Shown here in pieces: positions 46,713 to 53,959 of a stretch of DNA of 64,000 bases. Numbering within the stretch: position 1 is the stretch's first letter; every line of letters starts with the position of its first letter. The translations under genes were made by a program, and so were the position numbers. The notes under the pieces were generated by a model. That model was not told where the DNA came from. It did no database searches and saw only the letters and a program-made list of their open reading frames with translations. The DNA comes from Sedimentisphaerales bacterium (GTDB taxonomy: Bacteria; Planctomycetota; Phycisphaerae; Sedimentisphaerales; Anaerobacaceae), in contig OY970194.1 of assembly GCA_963708075.1 (NCBI GenBank), positions 2,528,001-2,592,000 on the forward strand, in the 5' to 3' direction.

Positions 46713-49700
46713 ATGTTCGGAAGGCTGAGAAGAAAGACGGCCGAGGCACAGGATGTCGCGTCGCTGCTAAAGGCGAGCCTCCAGGGCAGCACGCAGGCTT
46801 TCGAGGCGATCGTCGGGCGATACCAGTCGCTCGTCTGCACGATCACCTACAGCGGCACCGGCAGCGTGGAGAAGAGCGAGGAGCTCGCTCAGGAGACGTT
46901 CCTGCGGGCCTGGAAGAGCCTGGATCAGCTCCATGACCCGGCCAGGTTCCGCGCCTGGCTGTGCAGCATCGCCCGCAGCACGGTGCAGAACTGGTTTCGC
47001 AGCCGCAAGCTGGATGTAGTCGGCAAGGCGGCCCCGCTGGACACCGCCGTCGAGAAGGCCTCCGAGGAGGCTGGACCTGTGGAGGCCGCCATGATGAAAG
47101 AGCAGCAAGCCGTCGTCGCGCACGCCCTGAACCGCATCCCCGAATCGCTCCGCGAGCCGCTGATCCTGTTCTATCGCGAGCAGAAGTCCGTACGGGAGGT
47201 CGCCGGGCAACTGGGAGTCTCGGAGAACGCCGCCAGGCAGCGAATCTCGCGAGGCAGAAGCATGCTCCGCGACCAGGTGGCCGACATCGTGGAGACGACG
47301 ATCTCTCGCACGAAGCCCGGCAAAGCCTTCACCACGGCCGTTATCGCCGCCGTTGCCGCCACAGCCGCAAAGACCACAACCACCGCCGTAGCCGCAACGG
47401 CAGTCGCCGCCGTCGTGACCAACTCCTCCGGCACGACGGCCGTCTTGTCAGGCGTGACAGCCAAGGTCATCGCACTGGCTGCCGGTGTCGTCATCGTCAC
47501 TGGCGGCGTGGTCGCCTACAGGCACCTGACCAAACCAGACCAGTCGCCGGTTGCCAGTTCTCAGTTGTCAGTTGGCGGCTCCGCAGAAAGCGACCTACAG
47601 CCAGAGGCCGGCGAATCGCAGGCGGGTGCCGCGGTGCCATCATCCGTCGTCCCTGCTGCAGATCGAGATTCCGCACTCCGCATTCCGAATTCCGAACTCG
47701 TCGCCCCATATGCAGAGCGGGACAGGTCAAGCGCCATCGTGACTCCGGCGGAAACCCGCCCTTACGAGTTCTCGCCCAAAGGCGTCCTCAGCGGCCGAAT
47801 CACGGATGTTGACACCGGCGAGCCCGTCCGTGATGCCATGGTTCAGATATCGATGAGTCGCATATTCTACGCTCGAACCGACGCCAACGGGTTCTATTCG
47901 TTCGACAGGGTCCACGAGGCCGGAAGCTTTCAGGTTCTCGGTCTTTTCGTTGGAGTACGTGGGCGTCGCACGGGATGCAAGGAATCCGGCCGTGTATCTC
48001 AGCAATGACAAGCAGGCCATCAAGCACTTCCAACTGCCCAAAGCGTGCATGGTGGATGTCTGGGTGACGGACCCGAACGGGGTCCCGCTGCCCAAAACAA
48101 ACGTTATTGTCACGTCGCTGGTCGACGACCGCTCGCGCGAGATCGGCGATTCAGCCCGCCTGCGGCAGACCGATCCCAACGGCTACATCCTGCTCGGCGG
48201 CATCCCGGCGGCCCGAACAGATTACCTGATCACGGTCTGGCACACAGCGGAACGGAAGCCGGACGAGATGCGCGAGGAGTACGACTACGCCCCGGCCGGC
48301 ATGGTCCTGCAATTGACAGATCCGAATGTGGTCAAGCAGGTGCGGATCACGTTGCAGGAAGGCCAGGACGTGCACGGATATGCCCAATATGCAGACGGCG
48401 TGCCGGCAAGCGACATCGAGATTTCCCCCAAACCCGCCTGGTGGCACTGCAACTACAGCGTTCTGCACGTTCCGGTCGATCCCAACGGCACGTTCACCCT
48501 CAAGCACATCACCCCCGGCATGTATAAGATCGGGATGTATGTCCCCAGGCCGGATAAGCGCGGCGGCACCCTGAGCACAATCGGGCAGGCCCAGCTTCCG
48601 CCGGACGACGGGCAGCCGCTCATCGTCCAAATCCCGGGCAAGTCTCCCCAATCGCTGGCCTCCATCAGCGGCAGGCTCATCTTCGTCGGCGAGAAGAAAC
48701 CGGACTCCGTGGATATCACCACCCGCTCTCCGAGCGGCGACAGTACCTTCACCAATGTCATGCATAAGCCGAATGGCGAATTGGATGACACCTTCACACT
48801 GGATCGGTTGGAGCCCGGGATATACACGCTGCAATTCTCCGGCACGAACATGGAAGACAAGACGATCCGGAACGTCGTGGCGCCAAGCGAGGGACTTGAG
48901 GTCGAGTTAGTGTACGCGGCCAAGCCCCGCCTGACAGGTACGGTGATGGACGGCAAGACGGGCGAGCCAATCCGCAACTTCCGCGTCCGTATACGGAAAG
49001 TCCGGACGCTCCGTGACCCCAACTACACACAGCAGGACCGGTGGACACATGTCGAAAATGAGCGAGGCTCTTTCAGTATAGATACGGTCGGGCCGGGGGT
49101 ATACCAGGTTCAGGCGGCCGCCGACGGATACGCCCCGCGGTGGAGCGACGAAATCAACACCGACCGGCCGGGACAAACAACGGTCGCGTTGTCACCCGGG
49201 GGGACTGTTACAGGCATGGTCGTCAATAACAGAGGCGAGCCGGTTGACGGGGCCAGGATCATCCCGCTATCTCTGGCCGGCGGAGCCATGCCTCAGACGA
49301 AGGATGACTTCGTGTACGAGGAGGGAGCGGCTACGACGGCCGCCGGCGCGTTCACGTTGTCGAATCTGCCCCCCGGCGTCGAAACGCTCAGGGTCACGCA
49401 CCCGGACTACGTATTCGCAATCGCGGACAACATCCCCGTGGTCGAAGGCAAGACTGCCGATGGAGTGCGTGTCATTCTGACTTCCGGCGGCACAGTCGAG
49501 GGCTATGTGTATGATGATCAGGGCAAACCACAGGCGGCTCAGGCGATCTACTTCCGGAATGAGAGCGGCTACAGCGGAACGGCCGAGGAAGCCGCCGGAC
49601 TACTTGGCTCGGCCGTAACCGACAGCAATGGGTTCTATCAGGTCTCTCACCTGCCCGAGAAGCTGTGTCACGTCATGAGGGGCGATGGCTGGTCCGGCAC

Positions 49701-50822
49701 GGGCGTCGTGTACAGAGTAGTCGTACCCAGCAGCGGCGAAGTCGCCCGGCTGGACTTCGGCGGCACGGCTCTCGTCACTGGTGTCGCGGTCATCGATGGG
49801 ACGCCGCTGGCCAAAACCCGGCTCCTGTTGGGGGCCACCGATTCGTACTATTCCGGCCCGTTCCGCTGCTTCGCCACGACCGATGAGCAGGGCGCCTTCG
49901 TGTTCCGCGGGGTGTCGCGGGGCACACACGCCGTCTACTACGCCCGGTCGGACAGACAGAACGATTGGCTCAAGGTCGCCACCTTCACGGTCGCTGATAC
50001 GGACTTGGACCTCGGCGTAATTCCGCACGAAGCATCAAGCCTGATGGTGACCATCGATGTTCCTGAAGCGGATCCCGCCTGGCAGATTGAGGACGTGTTC
50101 ATCTCGGACAGCGATCGGCCGACCGTTGGCAGATACCGCGACGCGGAGGCGCCGACCGTTGCAAGCGGGCCGTGGCTGTTTGACAACGTTGCGGCAGGCC
50201 TCTACACGCTGACAGTCGCTCGCCGGGATGGTGTCCGCTGGCGAACGAAAGTCGATCTCAAGCCCGGTCAAGGTCCCTGGCAAATCACTGTAACCGCTCC
50301 CCAAGGCAGTGCGAGAGTGTCCGGGCGTGTCCACGGCGATGCGAATTGGCTGGCCCTCTGGCGGGAAGGGAAAGACGTGTGGTCTCTGGTCCTCGCGAGA
50401 AACGGGCGCAGTTCTCCATTGCCGACCTGCCCGTGGGCAAGTACTTCATCGGCACCGACCCTGCCTTCCTCTTCGAAATGCCTGCCCTGATGGAGTTTAC
50501 GCTCCGTGAGGGCGAGGACAAAGTAATCAATGTGGACACATCGGCGGAGCCAAAAAGCCAGATGGGTTTCCTGGTGGTGCTCGTCGTGGACGAGAAGGTC
50601 GCTCCACGCAACGATGTTCATGCCTGGCTCGAAGGGCCGCAAGGGGCCGTAGAGCCGCTCGAATGGTCGGTATCCGGCCACTGCTTCGCCGCTGCCCCCG
50701 GCACGTACACGCTTCATGTGGAAGCCGCCGGATACAAGCCGATCAGGACAAGCATAACCCTCAGACCCTTCGGACCGGCAGGCGGCAAAGCACAAACTCG
50801 CACGGTTCACCTGCAACCATGA
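46713..50822 (+). CDS. ECF sigma factor fused via TM helix to multiple carboxypeptidase-regulatory-like (beta-sandwich) domains; frameshifts near 47935 and 50403
   Basis: sigma2 (EELAQETFLRAW, FRAWL.SIAR) and sigma4 (LFY.E..SV.EVA..LG.SE...RQR.SRGR); TM; repeated G.V.D..GEP / TD.NG.Y motifs across three ORFs joinable by 1-base shifts. Confidence 0.82.
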
Positions 50823-50902
50823 AGCGTGCAAAGGCTGGCGGACGGCGGTAAAATGCGCATGTCGGAGGTCCGAACGGGACCATTGACAGATATTGTCCCA
50901 AT

Positions 50903-50986
50903 ATGCGCGGGGCCGCGGTGCAACGAGATGAGGAACTGATCGAGCGGATGAACGAGGGCGATGCGGACGCCTTCGAGGTCCTCTAC
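50903..50986 (+). pseudogene. Truncated ECF sigma factor N-terminus
   Basis: VQRDEELIERMNEGDADAFEVLY typical ECF start; similarity ends exactly at stop codon of opposite-strand R-M remnant. Confidence 0.6.
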
Positions 50987-51460
50987 TCCGGTATCTCTCT
51001 CACCCCATATAGCGTGCACACTAGGCCATCGATTTCTTTCTCGTGCGCCTCTACCTCACGCTCAAGTTGCTCTCGCTCGTGGTCGGAAAGATGTGCATCT
51101 GCCAGCCTCTTCTTTCCTTTGATGATTCCGACCACACGGTCATTTACCTGCTTGCCAAGGTGCTTTTCCTCTCGTGTCTTTGGGACCTTGATGGGCAATT
51201 GTCCCATGAACTGCGGAAATGGGCGAAACCAACCGCCACGTAGGGTCGTCGAGATGCTTTTCAGATAGTCACTGAGCAAACGGCTATTCAGGAGACATAG
51301 GAAATACAGCAGTAGGTCAGCGTGGGCACCCGAGGAGTTTCCAAAGAGGATCGATGTACTCCTGCCTGATAACTGCCTCAGGCGTACCCTGATCCTTAAG
51401 GGCTTTGTGATTCTCCCGAAAGGCTTGCACAAGCTTTCTGACCTGCGTCACATCCTACAT
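50983..51460 (-). pseudogene. Internally deleted type IIG (Eco57I/TaqI-like) restriction-modification gene remnant
   Basis: ATG-TAG then QVRKLVQAFREN...EAVIRQEYIDPLWKLLG (N-terminus) joined near 51327 out of frame to YFLCLLNSRLL..Y...IS..LRGG...LPI...EIDGLV..LYG (C-terminus). Confidence 0.75.
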
Positions 51461-51912
51461 CCGCGCGTGCTCCAAAGCGTTTTCCCAAAGTGCGGCTGTC
51501 CGCCCTCTCAGCTGGCTACGGATTATGGGTTGGCGATGGCAGGTCGTCAACCCTGGTTGCCCCTGCCGGGTCCATTAACCACGCCAGAGAGCCGCCGAGA
51601 GGCCCTATAACCCTATCGGTCAGATTCAGCAGACAACTTGACCTTGTCTGGAAGCCGTGGAAACAGACCTCCATTGATGGATGCCTTCTGCCCCAGCCGT
51701 AAAAATACAGGGCTGCAAGTCTCTGGGCTACAATGGTTTGCAGGTATTTTCACTACCCAACAGAAATCTCTGCAACATCCCGACTCCCGGGAGCGTCTTT
51801 AGCATATGGTCTGATGCCCATGTCTCACCCGGCGCCGGCGCCAGGCCAGGCGGCCTTGCTCAATCATAAATCGTCATTCATAAATGCCCGGAGGACTTCC
51901 AATGGCAAGTAT

Positions 51913-52315
51913 GCGAAACAAAGCCAATTACGGGCCGGAGGCCCTTGGGATTGCGGAATGTGGTTTGCGGATTGCGGATTGAAGAGTACGAGAGTGTCAT
52001 GGCGGGCCTCCAGCGGCAAGCGTGCGAAACAAAGCCAATTTCAAGGAAGCGGGCAGGAGGCAACGACCGGCATCGCGTGAAACAAAGCCAATTTACCCTG
52101 GCAGACAGATGGCGTGCACGGCATACCCCACGAGTGGCGGCGAACGCGCTGCGCCAAACAAAGCCAATTTTCGAGGCCAACCCCCTGCGCAGCAGGGACG
52201 CATCGTGCGAAACAAAGCCAATTTGCATGGACGGCAAGTGGATCGTAAGTACTGGTCTGGGAAAGAGTTATAAGGAAGAATGAGAACGATGCGTCTGCGA
52301 AAACAAAGCCAATTT
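51913..52315 (+). repeat. Array of six AAACAAAGCCAATT direct repeats with variable spacers
   Basis: Exact 14-mer at 51916, 52027, 52080, 52156, 52210, 52301; usually preceded by GCG and followed by T. Confidence 0.92.
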
Positions 52316-52399
52316 ACGGGGCTTGGTTCCTCGTATTGAGAGAAACGGTACAATGCCCGGGATCGTGTCGGTCGGAGTGCATGTGTCGAGGTCAATAAG

Positions 52400-52975
52400 A
52401 TGAAGATACTGGCGGTGGTTGGGAGCCCACGGACGGGCGGGAATACGGATATTCTGCTGTCGAAGATCGGGGAGGGAGCACAGATGGCCGGGGCGGAGGT
52501 CGAGACCGTTCATCTGGGCGGGTTGCAGGTGCGCGAGTGCGATGGGTGTCACGCGTGCTGGAAAGGCCGGGTGTGCAGCAAGGATGACGACATGCGGCCG
52601 CTTTATCCCAAGATCGCCGGCAGTGACGCGATCGTGTTCGGGACCCCCGTGTATTGGTACGGGCCGACGGCACTGATGAAGGCGTTCATCGACCGGTTTG
52701 TGTACTTCAACTGTGAGGCGAACCGGCCGCAGGTGCGCGGCAAGAAGGCGGTCGTGGCCGTCGTGCTGGAGGAGGACCGCGAAGAGACGTGGAGACCGGT
52801 CGTGGAGTTCTTCGAGCGGAGCCTTGGTTACTTGGAGATGCAATTGACCGGGATGATCGTCGTGCCGGGCGTAGGGGCAAAAGGCGCGATCCGAAGAAAG
52901 CCGGAGCAGCTTGAAGAGGCGATGCGTCTTGGGCAACGGCTCGCCGCGAGTGCAGGCGGCCCGCCGCAGCCGTGA
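52400..52975 (+). CDS. Flavodoxin family / iron-sulfur flavoprotein (NADPH-dependent FMN reductase-like)
   Basis: MKILAVVGSPR.GGNT, CDGCHAC....C..KDDM, GTPVYW...TA.MKAFIDR. Confidence 0.9.
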   Translation: MKILAVVGSPRTGGNTDILLSKIGEGAQMAGAEVETVHLGGLQVRECDGCHACWKGRVCSKDDDMRPLYPKIAGSDAIVFGTPVYWYGPTALMKAFIDRFVYFNCEANRPQVRGKKAVVAVVLEEDREETWRPVVEFFERSLGYLEMQLTGMIVVPGVGAKGAIRRKPEQLEEAMRLGQRLAASAGGPPQP

Positions 52976-53017
52976 GCTTCGAGCGAGCCCACGGCACGAC
53001 AAGACCAGCCTGTCACA

Positions 53018-53959
53018 TCAGTTGTTGATGAGACGGAGAAGCTGGTCGGCGAGGCCGGCGTCCAGCGTCTGGAGAATCCGCTGCTGTTCGATCGCCAGGC
53101 CGCGGTCCCCAGCCCCGAGATACGCCCTGCCGAGATTGTAGTACGCCCGGGCATGGCTCTGATCGATAGTGGTCACGTCCTTGTAGCACTGGATCGCCTG
53201 CTCGTAGAGTCCGGCCTCCATGTAGGCATTGCCGGAGAGGACCTGGACCTCGTTGACCTGCGGATCGAGTTGCTTGGCTTTCTGAAAGGCCTGCATGGCC
53301 TCCTCGTAGCGGCCGGAACTGGAAAGGGCCAGGCCCAGCGACGTATGGGCCGCGGCGGATTCCGGCTTGATCTTCAGCGCACGCTCGTAGGAGTCGATTG
53401 CCTCCGGGTAGCGACCCAGCGCGGCATACGCCTTGCCCAATCCGAAATGCCCGTCGAAGCTGTTAGGGTCCAGTGCTACAGCCTTCTGATAGGAGACGAC
53501 GGCCTCTTCGGCACGGTTCTCGTCGCTGTATGCATCGCCCAGCAGTATGTTGGCGCCCGAGTCTTCCGGCCGGATGGCGACGAGCTTTTCGCAGGCATCC
53601 ACCGCCTCTTTGGCGTCGCCGGAGGTGTTGTAGTGCTTGCCCAGGTAGCTGTAAGCGCCGGCCCGGTCCGGAGAGATGGCGGCAATGTGGCGGAGAATCA
53701 CCGCCCGGAGGCCATCCAGTTTGATGGGCCCGGACTTGATCTGCAGCAGGATGATGGCCAGTAACAGGGCCACAAGGAGCAATACGTATCGGATATAGGT
53801 TCGCCGGTTGGAAGCTGCGAGACGATGAGTCGCACGCAACTGGGGGCATTCGGCGGGCGGCAGGTCCGCACGGCTTCCTCGCCTGCTAAATGCACCGGCG
53901 AAACGATCCAGATCTTCGATGTGTAGCGGTTCGTGTCTCCCTGATTTTACCTGTGCCAT
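53018..53959 (-). CDS. Membrane-anchored tetratricopeptide repeat protein
   Basis: One TM then about six TPRs (A...LG.AY...GRY.EAI..Y..AL...P). Confidence 0.88.
   Translation of the reverse strand: MAQVKSGRHEPLHIEDLDRFAGAFSRRGSRADLPPAECPQLRATHRLAASNRRTYIRYVLLLVALLLAIILLQIKSGPIKLDGLRAVILRHIAAISPDRAGAYSYLGKHYNTSGDAKEAVDACEKLVAIRPEDSGANILLGDAYSDENRAEEAVVSYQKAVALDPNSFDGHFGLGKAYAALGRYPEAIDSYERALKIKPESAAAHTSLGLALSSSGRYEEAMQAFQKAKQLDPQVNEVQVLSGNAYMEAGLYEQAIQCYKDVTTIDQSHARAYYNLGRAYLGAGDRGLAIEQQRILQTLDAGLADQLLRLINN

Follow-up and report, generated by a model that had tools for sequence, protein, structure and literature searches.

A CRISPR-Looking Repeat-Spacer Array as the Probable Gene-Less Form of a Minimal Element That Pairs One Gene With a Short DNA Motif

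The Array and Its Surroundings

The window analyzed here, a stretch of 64,000 nucleotides from a Sedimentisphaerales genome, contains six exact copies of the 14-mer AAACAAAGCCAATT, all of them on the plus strand: copy 1 at 51916..51929, copy 2 at 52027..52040, copy 3 at 52080..52093, copy 4 at 52156..52169, copy 5 at 52210..52223, and copy 6 at 52301..52314. The number expected from 100 shuffles is 0.17, and a search of the window found no further matches with two or fewer mismatches. The periods between the copies are 111, 53, 76, 54, and 91 nt, all three reading frames are used, and the repeat unit around the 14-mer reaches about 25 nt. A first-pass annotation had given the same starts and periods, and its view that the copies fall in different frames and are conserved at the nucleotide level is borne out. 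Positions 51821-52363 are reproduced without any difference by a 543-nt short-read contig (run X1). This argues against an assembly artefact, but it is not independent support, since X1 is possibly the source sample itself.

The last copy is probably the right end of the element, a position inferred from other loci, and 85 nt separate it from the next gene. This gene (52400..52975, +) encodes a flavodoxin-like protein (PF03358, E = 9e-28) and represents native host context. No motif is found upstream of its orthologues at 19 loci, two of which have less than 200 nt of flank. The window itself does not offer a clean empty site, since gene order on the upstream side of the flavodoxin gene is not conserved.

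The spacers had been described as unrelated to each other. BLAST indeed finds no match among the five; homologues of spacers 1, 3, and 5 are, however, present elsewhere in the genome, in other arrays. Spacer 1 (51930..52020, +) is an ATTGCGG heptamer module whose family occurs in about 20 arrays; it matches the spacer of another array at 90% over 52 nt, and has 39 matches outside arrays. Spacer 3 (52094..52149, +) is a module with a REP-like half, belongs to a family found in 19 arrays, and matches spacers from two other arrays at 84% over 37 nt. Spacer 5 (52224..52294, +) forms a motif-box-motif module with a period of 91 nt, in which the box is a TAA-N19-TTA palindrome at 52244-52272 (25.2 bits). 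The same module is found 3' of the cognate gene described below in other Phycisphaerae. The heptamer runs and both of the small hairpins noted earlier are present in the sequence, and so is this box, of which a second, previously unlisted copy lies further upstream.

The region 51701..51885 (+) is homologous to the 5' leader of intact copies of the cognate gene, and within it 51701-51872 matches the leader of the gene at C1:2509768 at 75% over 179 columns (E = 5e-26). The other long matches to it in the genome are 18 in number. Each precedes an array of the same orientation, and the gene is present in six cases and missing in 12. The leader contains the second box, a palindrome of the form TAAG-N3-TTG-N5-CAA-N4-TTA at 51714..51742 (16.5 bits with the box matrix), followed by the conserved promoter-like pattern TGCAAC-N17-CGTCT at 51771..51798 (+), a putative ECF-sigma-like promoter. 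Eight more genomic copies match this pattern in its strict form, and all of them precede either an array or a copy of the gene. An AATCATA-type heptamer run ends the leader (51862..51885, +), and a similar run precedes the ribosome-binding site in most intact gene copies. This run and the TAA-N19-TTA box, which the first-pass annotation described as interleaved with the array, both belong to the leader of the element. A GGAGG and an ATG (at 51902) are left from the deleted gene, and open an ORF of just 26 codons (51890..51982, +). The window thus keeps the box, the promoter-like pattern, the heptamer run, the GGAGG, and the ATG, with the array following directly, which points to a gene-deleted derivative.

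On the other side of the leader lies the remnant of a type IIG restriction-modification (R-M) gene (50983..51432, -), recognized earlier as a decayed R-M gene. It matches PADLOC model PDLC03604 weakly (E = 3.2e-6) and the methyltransferase family phrog_16674 at E = 0.005, while no Pfam match was found for the ORF. The remnant is probably leader-side cargo outside the core element, and as such one instance of a general trend toward foreign cargo on this side. What appears to be the start of an ECF sigma factor gene (50920-50990, containing …DEELIERMNEGDADAFEVLY…, in an ORF with no Pfam match) is cut where the R-M remnant ends, and this may be the left edge of an inserted block. At 46713-50822, an ECF sigma gene precedes ORFs with carboxypeptidase-regulatory-like domains, which overlap each other in three frames (46713-48008, 47950-50490, and 50346-50822); these ORFs are one fused gene split by frameshifts, either real or due to sequencing errors.

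Distribution of the Motif and Its Cognate Gene

The 7.5-Mb genome contains 164 exact copies of the motif and 99 with one mismatch, altogether 263, in 48 clusters that are each confined to a single strand. When neighbors with two mismatches are added, 38 clusters have three or more copies. The genome consensus is approximately TGTGCGAAACAAAGCCAATT, which is non-palindromic, and the core found across phyla is ACRAASCCAW. Scanning relatives, a check that the first-pass annotation had proposed together with that of the genome, gave 0-664 exact copies of the 14-mer per genome in 18 genomes of the same genus; the zero counts are partly explained by some relatives using the variant motif GAAACRAASCCAATT. 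Motif orientation does not follow the replichores as for sites of the KOPS or Chi type, as only 16 of 42 arrays are on the leading strand, and this candidate was rejected.

In nine cases an array follows immediately on the 3' side of a gene that has no annotation, and one of these gene copies is frameshifted. Its ORF starts M.SEAQV.ANRRNAAKSTGPRT.EGK, with the signature NRRNAxKSTGPRTxEGK. The gene is found in 16 of the 18 same-genus genomes and in eight of 120 genomes drawn from the phylum, and a scan of GTDB genomes gave at least 510 confirmed places, of which the best 80 were analyzed. These 80 loci include members from Phycisphaerae, Bryobacterales, Terriglobia, Verrucomicrobiota, Chlamydiota, Zixiibacteriota, Alphaproteobacteria, and Actinomycetota. 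Among the best 80 of the at least 510 places, 71 loci have enough flank, and in 59 of these ACRAASCCAW lies 300-1500 nt downstream of the gene start, while the 1.2 kb upstream of the gene contains it in only five of 70 loci; both counts include kin, and the loci are therefore not independent. Relative to the gene, the motif is forward in 50 and reverse in 17 of the 71 loci. The family is very large, with 38,650 representatives at 50% identity when matches up to E = 0.001, including those covering the N-terminus only, are counted.

Two simpler accounts raised in the first-pass annotation do not hold. One is a decayed tandem duplication confined to this locus; the motif is found throughout the genome, and tandem duplication, rejected for the window, applies only to an 87-nt class in a few arrays. 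The other is an expressed protein that explains the repeats in a single frame. In 17 of 53 related loci the reading frame is already closed before the first motif is reached, motifs within ORFs are distributed over the frames as 20/16/9, and a coding explanation was thus rejected as well.

Sequence comparison shows that the gene is accompanied by the motif across phyla, and that gene-less copies keep the leader. Peptides derived from the motif are also present in the tails of 108 of 120 homologues, in agreement with this link. The gene, the motif, and the array very probably form one element, of which the window array would be a gene-less derivative. The earlier treatment of the array as an element standing alone therefore needs revision, as it belongs to a gene-bearing mobile element from which the gene has been deleted in the window. 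No description of such a gene-motif-array element was found in open-access full text, and those open-access papers that contain the motif or peptide strings were, among the matches listed, all unrelated. The element class is undescribed and real, and the mechanism proposed for it below is plausible.

One lineage of the element (L042-L066 and L233-L247) has an inverted motif pair 90-380 nt apart, often within an ORF, that encloses REP halves and heptamer runs. In four genomes from one family of the phylum (G117, G092, G141, and G062; L024-L027) there is a single distant homologue without the STGP...KHG arm and with no motif nearby, possibly a domesticated copy.

Insertion Sites and Polarity

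Comparison of orthologous loci, also proposed earlier, showed that the motif is mostly absent at the corresponding sites in relatives. These relatives are different species, 75-87% identical. The flhB gene (identified by Pfam) and its downstream neighbor are adjacent in five of five relatives, while here they are split by a 2-kb insert that contains the gene and an array and ends about 25 nt past the last motif. Upstream of a glyA-like and of a fusA-like gene the motif is absent in 23 of 23 relatives each, and upstream of a typA-like gene in 20 of 21, several of these relatives having short flanks; the exception, G013, has its own four-copy array. The glyA-, fusA-, and typA-like names were assigned from gene sequence. 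At the fusA-like site the native sequence resumes directly after the final CCAATT. Five copies of the gene at different loci are 93-98% identical, with a crude dN/dS of 0.2-0.4 in nine of ten pairs. These comparisons show the element at many lineage-specific sites, usually just 5' of a native gene.

The last motif does not mark the right end in every case. A recent gene-bearing subfamily (5 of 39) has a further stretch of about 150 nt in common beyond it, with a REP-like arm at its end. At the glyA-like site, MITE-type inverted ends and a target duplication surround the insert, which counts against a simple right end. Terminal inverted repeats with target duplication are seen only at this site, and they come from a separate MITE family. 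This family, 253 bp long with 19-bp inverted ends and target duplications, is found at G000:C1:313067-313319 and at least nine more sites, and it is these ends that surround the insert at the glyA-like site, which is 3.9 kb long. Transposase genes adjoin five arrays (L091, L092, L098, L112, and L115): one array has a Y1/RAYT gene a short distance upstream, and the other four have IS transposase genes (DDE_Tnp_1, UPF0236) beside them.

The two sides of the arrays differ. DNA upstream of the leader has a lower GC content than that downstream in 33 of 38 arrays, and the nearest gene is below 0.56 GC in 18 of 39 cases upstream and in none of 39 downstream, compared to 9-10% of control gaps; these gene counts build on crude gene calls, in which the R-M remnant of the window itself is uncalled. 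The median distance from the last motif to the next gene is 176 nt, and on the leader side it is 679 nt. Other upstream ORFs, picked mostly for low GC, match PADLOC models in eight of 30 cases. Base composition and gene content thus indicate that foreign genes accumulate on the leader side, although this could partly be geometry, since the right end abuts native promoters.

Spacers and the TAA-N19-TTA Box

The arrays of this genome contain 245 spacers. Of these, 162 group into families, which occur in as many as 23 arrays, and the other 83 are singletons. Array periods range from 32 to 375 nt. When the spacers were compared to their own genome, as the first-pass annotation had suggested, 107 of the 245 matched outside arrays, 89 of them five times or more. 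Visual inspection shows that it is heptamer runs and REP-like halves that match. No spacer copied from one unique chromosomal place was found in the BLAST screen. The spacer modules are polarised relative to the motif (25:0, 24:3, 9:0, 15:1, and 11:1), while the same modules are strand-balanced genome-wide. The spacers are also G-rich (G>C in 208 of 245), heptamer spacers occupy the first position in 13 of 30 cases, and consecutive multi-spacer blocks are common to several arrays. The spacers are reshuffled and polarised pieces of the REP, heptamer, and TAA-N19-TTA repeats of the host. Of the three options given by the first-pass annotation, a protein-binding array fits best; capture of unique sequences does not, the spacers being recurring host-repeat modules.

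A 10.5-bp helical phasing was not seen in expanded arrays, save for the one 87-nt class. The 28 modules of 86-94 nt were chosen by length and are no evidence of fixed spacing, which is seen instead in the box-bearing spacers described below.

The box is the palindrome tgTAAgtcCtTG-N5-CAaGgacTTAca. It is found in nine of nine gene leaders, and in 18 of 39 leaders compared to one of 39 control windows, a search that missed the degenerate copy of the window. Box-bearing spacers have a period of 81-82 or 90-92 nt in 17 of 19 cases. The half site CAA-N4-TTA fits in part what we take to be the IHF consensus, WATCAANNNNTTR, and the genome has three genes of the HU/IHF family. From its sequence, the leader box is probably the site of a host DNA-bending protein, IHF/HU-like.

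Using a matrix trained on these elements, 269 box sites were found genome-wide, against 31 in one shuffle, and 64 of them are near arrays. The box is a general intergenic element, and neither a dif function nor that of a recombinase core specific to the element is supported. The approximately 270 palindromes are mostly intergenic (e.g., G000:C1:720316, 2921537, and 3358374), several less than 80 nt from tRNA genes, and are probably sites of a host nucleoid protein or regulator.

The Cognate Protein

The cognate protein gives no match to Pfam, NCBIfam, PHROGs, PADLOC, PDB sequences, or annotated phages, and its neighbors in the ESM Atlas are all 'hypothetical'. An AF2 model of the approximately 190-residue protein is all-helical with a pLDDT of 82.5, the first 50 residues being of low confidence. 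Fold searches with this model gave nothing at E = 0.001; the highest VIA Z was 7.7, obtained for generic bundles of helices, and no small terminase (TerS) was among the top 50.

A relationship to TerS is suggested by viral contigs, from which 79 loci were retained. Three of these contain full-length family members, all with the motif, while the remainder mainly match the N-terminus, and the motif is found near the TerS-like phage genes in only three of 76. Among 20 phage loci picked for a long next ORF, this ORF belongs to phrog_2 (large terminase, TerL) in eight, and the ORF bearing the N-terminal motif belongs to small-terminase PHROGs in seven; a Pfam terminase was found for just one of 36 next ORFs. 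In several phage groups among L308-L382 the TerS-like gene is followed by ORFs of 550-630 residues that are unmatched by PHROGs or Pfam, probably divergent large terminases. Aligned to the phage TerS-like sets by hhalign, the cognate protein gives a probability of 98-99% over 46-47 N-terminal columns only, and this match is partly circular, since the phage set was found using that same motif. A profile of the rest of the protein against 42 viral proteins reached E = 0.06 at best, compared to 0.15 for a reversed decoy, and is not significant. Helix order is the same in the models of the cognate protein and of one phage TerS-like relative. For the latter (pLDDT 70.5), HK97 TerS was ranked second with a Z of 6.8, an rmsd of 3.8, and 92 aligned residues, which is below the trust level and a hint only, and Foldseek gave no match.

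When four copies of the core were modeled together, the self-association score was 0.79, while the best of three controls reached 0.00. This mark is reached by 20 of 30 solved pairs and by one of 23 single chains, a calibration that is rough here given the four copies and their own alignment. At least 49% of the contacts agree between the runs, the pLDDT is at least 73, and one copy touches two neighbors by different faces. The modeling supports, but does not show, that the protein oligomerises.

No large terminase (phrog_2) was found in this genome, which is 92.8% complete. Among 109 flanking ORFs of the best 80 loci there is neither a terminase at E = 1e-12 nor a constant partner. A satellite-like context is found for at most four of the 80: in L280 and L292 a DUF927 gene precedes the gene and a serine recombinase follows it, in L299 a recombinase follows, and in L302 a DUF3987 gene precedes. 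In inverted motif pairs, the G/C position is complementary in just seven of 21 loci, which favors two independent duplex sites over an RNA stem.

Proposed Mechanism and Alternatives

We propose that the layout box - promoter - heptamer run - ribosome-binding site - gene - motif(s) is that of a minimal element, with the window array as its non-autonomous form. The helical protein would be a TerS relative inherited from phage satellites, which oligomerises and binds ACRAASCCAW in double-stranded DNA by means of the STGP...KHG arm. A host bending protein on the box might draw a pair of motifs close to each other, similar to lambda cosB. When a helper phage infects, the TerS-like protein would recruit the large terminase of this phage; the helper must come from outside, since the genome lacks a phrog_2 match. 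The DNA would be cut at or near the last motif, with packaging running toward the gene and the DNA upstream, and the motif end could then join a new site by illegitimate or microhomology joining. Such joining would leave the right end sharp and any cargo at the left. The gene-less arrays would use the protein in trans, and arrays might become longer as units are duplicated, repeats are inserted, and blocks of several spacers are exchanged via the shared motif. Packaging alone leaves integration at new sites unexplained. The likeness of the protein to the subunit by which phage packaging machines recognize DNA suggests that the element is a minimal parasite, one by which chromosomal sites are marked for phage transfer. 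We judge the chances of the explanation as a whole to be even, and for the TerS/pac packaging mechanism doubt weighs marginally heavier.

Part of the observations could also be explained by a recombination platform, in which motif-box-motif serves for attachment, the box being a bent core between two arms, and the protein is an architectural helper that binds DNA, while an enzyme acting in trans, either a tyrosine recombinase or RAYT/Y1, moves the element and inserts cargo at the leader box in an integron-like manner. The genome has four tyrosine recombinases and 13 matches to Y1 transposases, boxes flank the gene on both sides, and the period of the box spacers is fixed in 17 of 19 cases. The REP halves in the spacers are polarised (24:3, 9:0, and 15:1), and one site has different inserts in different relatives, with remnants in G018 (box and motif) and G151 (a single motif). 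The box is, however, a general intergenic element with most of its sites away from arrays rather than an element-specific core, none of the 109 flanking ORFs is a constant enzyme neighbor, and both the TerS-type N-terminus and the satellite contexts would be left unexplained. We find this platform rather unlikely.

That the arrays are a passive mosaic of the NIME/BIME type is improbable. The motif would in that case be the operator of the gene or a neutral seed, the gene would hitchhike in REPIN/MITE units, and the arrays would grow by ordinary recombination without a dedicated function. This agrees with the many spacer matches outside arrays (107 of 245, 89 of them at least five times), with the multi-spacer blocks common to arrays, with the MITE ends and REP-like arms near some copies, and with the NIME arrays, where a 20-bp repeat alternates with recurring spacer families of 50-150 bp (PMC1797815). 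It does not account for gene and motif being linked across many phyla, for the motif lying 3' of the gene instead of at its promoter, for gene-less copies keeping the leader and an almost invariant motif, or for the strict polarity of spacers and cargo, and REP-like arms are found on both sides in just one of 39 loci.

An RNA system is a very improbable alternative. Transcripts of the leader and array would in that case be processed at the motif, and the resulting small RNAs bound by the protein (guides or decoys against host repeats, or type III antitoxin-like). Gene-less arrays do retain a promoter-like leader pointing in the motif direction, and the spacers are strand-polarised, G-rich, and match abundant host repeats. 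However, the motif is found both forward and reverse relative to the gene, complementarity is not maintained in inverted pairs, Rfam gives no match, and the protein matches no nuclease or RNase family.

If the packaging model is true, a one-gene element that has neither an integrase nor a replicon is able to exploit phages, and it marks the entry of foreign and defence genes in Planctomycetota, Acidobacteriota, and others. A wider reading, which we consider possible but lean mildly against, is that of a new minimal selfish element: a satellite-derived small-terminase-like gene with its cognate site that has moved out of phage satellites into tens of thousands of protein clusters throughout bacteria, whose pac-like arrays, dozens per chromosome, make upstream regions phage-packaged transfer platforms for defence and foreign genes, and whose gene-less, CRISPR-looking arrays are the non-autonomous form. 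Even if the packaging mechanism fails, a gene-motif-array element absent from the open-access literature searched would stand. A very large unnamed protein family is given its first handle through its pairing with a short DNA site, and an array that looks like CRISPR without being one is explained.

Comparison With Known Systems

As in CRISPR, a leader is followed by co-oriented direct repeats and spacers. Here, in contrast, the periods vary from 32 to 375 nt, the spacers are self-derived and recurring, and the repeat has no Rfam match (none in 50500-53500 up to E = 1). No match to Cas1 (PF01867) was found in the 92.8% complete genome, so the first-pass annotation was right in calling this an uncharacterised repeat-spacer element and not CRISPR. 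With REP/BIME/REPIN and their RAYT, and with MITEs, the element shares an excess of non-autonomous over gene-bearing copies, and its spacers are full of REP halves and heptamer runs. It differs from IS, MITE, and REPIN in that the constant repeat forms no hairpin and in that the cognate protein matches neither Y1 nor DDE families.

NIME (dRS3/RS) elements consist of a repeat of about 20 bp and recurring spacer families of 50-150 bp in dynamic intergenic arrays, for which a role in recombination was proposed (PMC1797815). The arrays here are likewise numerous and intergenic, and have a short constant repeat alternating with spacer families that recur. However, dRS3 is an inverted repeat and its arrays are syntenic between strains, whereas the present motif is non-palindromic and polarised, comes with a leader and a cognate gene, and occupies lineage-specific sites.

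In phage lambda, cosB has the order R3-I1-R2-R1, with one site inverted and an IHF site that bends the DNA between the TerS sites (PMC9026076, PMC4856287). The TerS of HK97 places a flexible N-terminal arm in the minor groove and recognizes a 15-bp A-tract site (PMC11331095); in the cognate protein the 50 N-terminal residues are of low pLDDT. In contrast to cosB and HK97, a cosN-like site was not found here, a winged-helix domain was not seen, and the site lies 3' of the gene. Small-terminase genes are situated directly upstream of terL, while no phrog_2 match is found in this genome.

A functional parallel may be found in phage-inducible chromosomal islands (PICIs). Small terminases of SaPIs, together with the large terminase of the helper, package from the pac of the island and from pseudo-pac sites in one direction (PMC6687093). 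More generally, in PICIs, i.e., SaPI TerS with pac and pseudo-pac, the Rpp of Gram-negative islands, and VEIME, a satellite protein that is TerS-like redirects the helper terminase to its own site and moves unlinked DNA one way (PMC6687093, PMC9026076, PMC9618062). The present element differs in being about 1 kb with one gene, without an integrase, replicon, or regulator, in using dozens of chromosomal sites instead of one att site, and in giving rise to gene-less repeat-spacer derivatives. No integrase and replication module was found among 78 flanking ORFs around the arrays of this genome, and at the distant loci such a module is present in two of 80 and partial in two more. By the features compared, the element falls outside CRISPR, PICI, NIME, and IS/MITE as these are defined; its layout is NIME-like, and it may work like the packaging module of a PICI.

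Like satellites, a few family members lie between a primase-like gene and a serine recombinase. Satellites are reported to carry a gene set of this kind, primase-like and serine recombinase, as around L280 and L292 (PMC9618062). On one contig of a viral collection (L306:2613-3056), the full-length gene and motif lie just before an apparent tRNA 3' end, an arrangement that resembles the boundary of an island.
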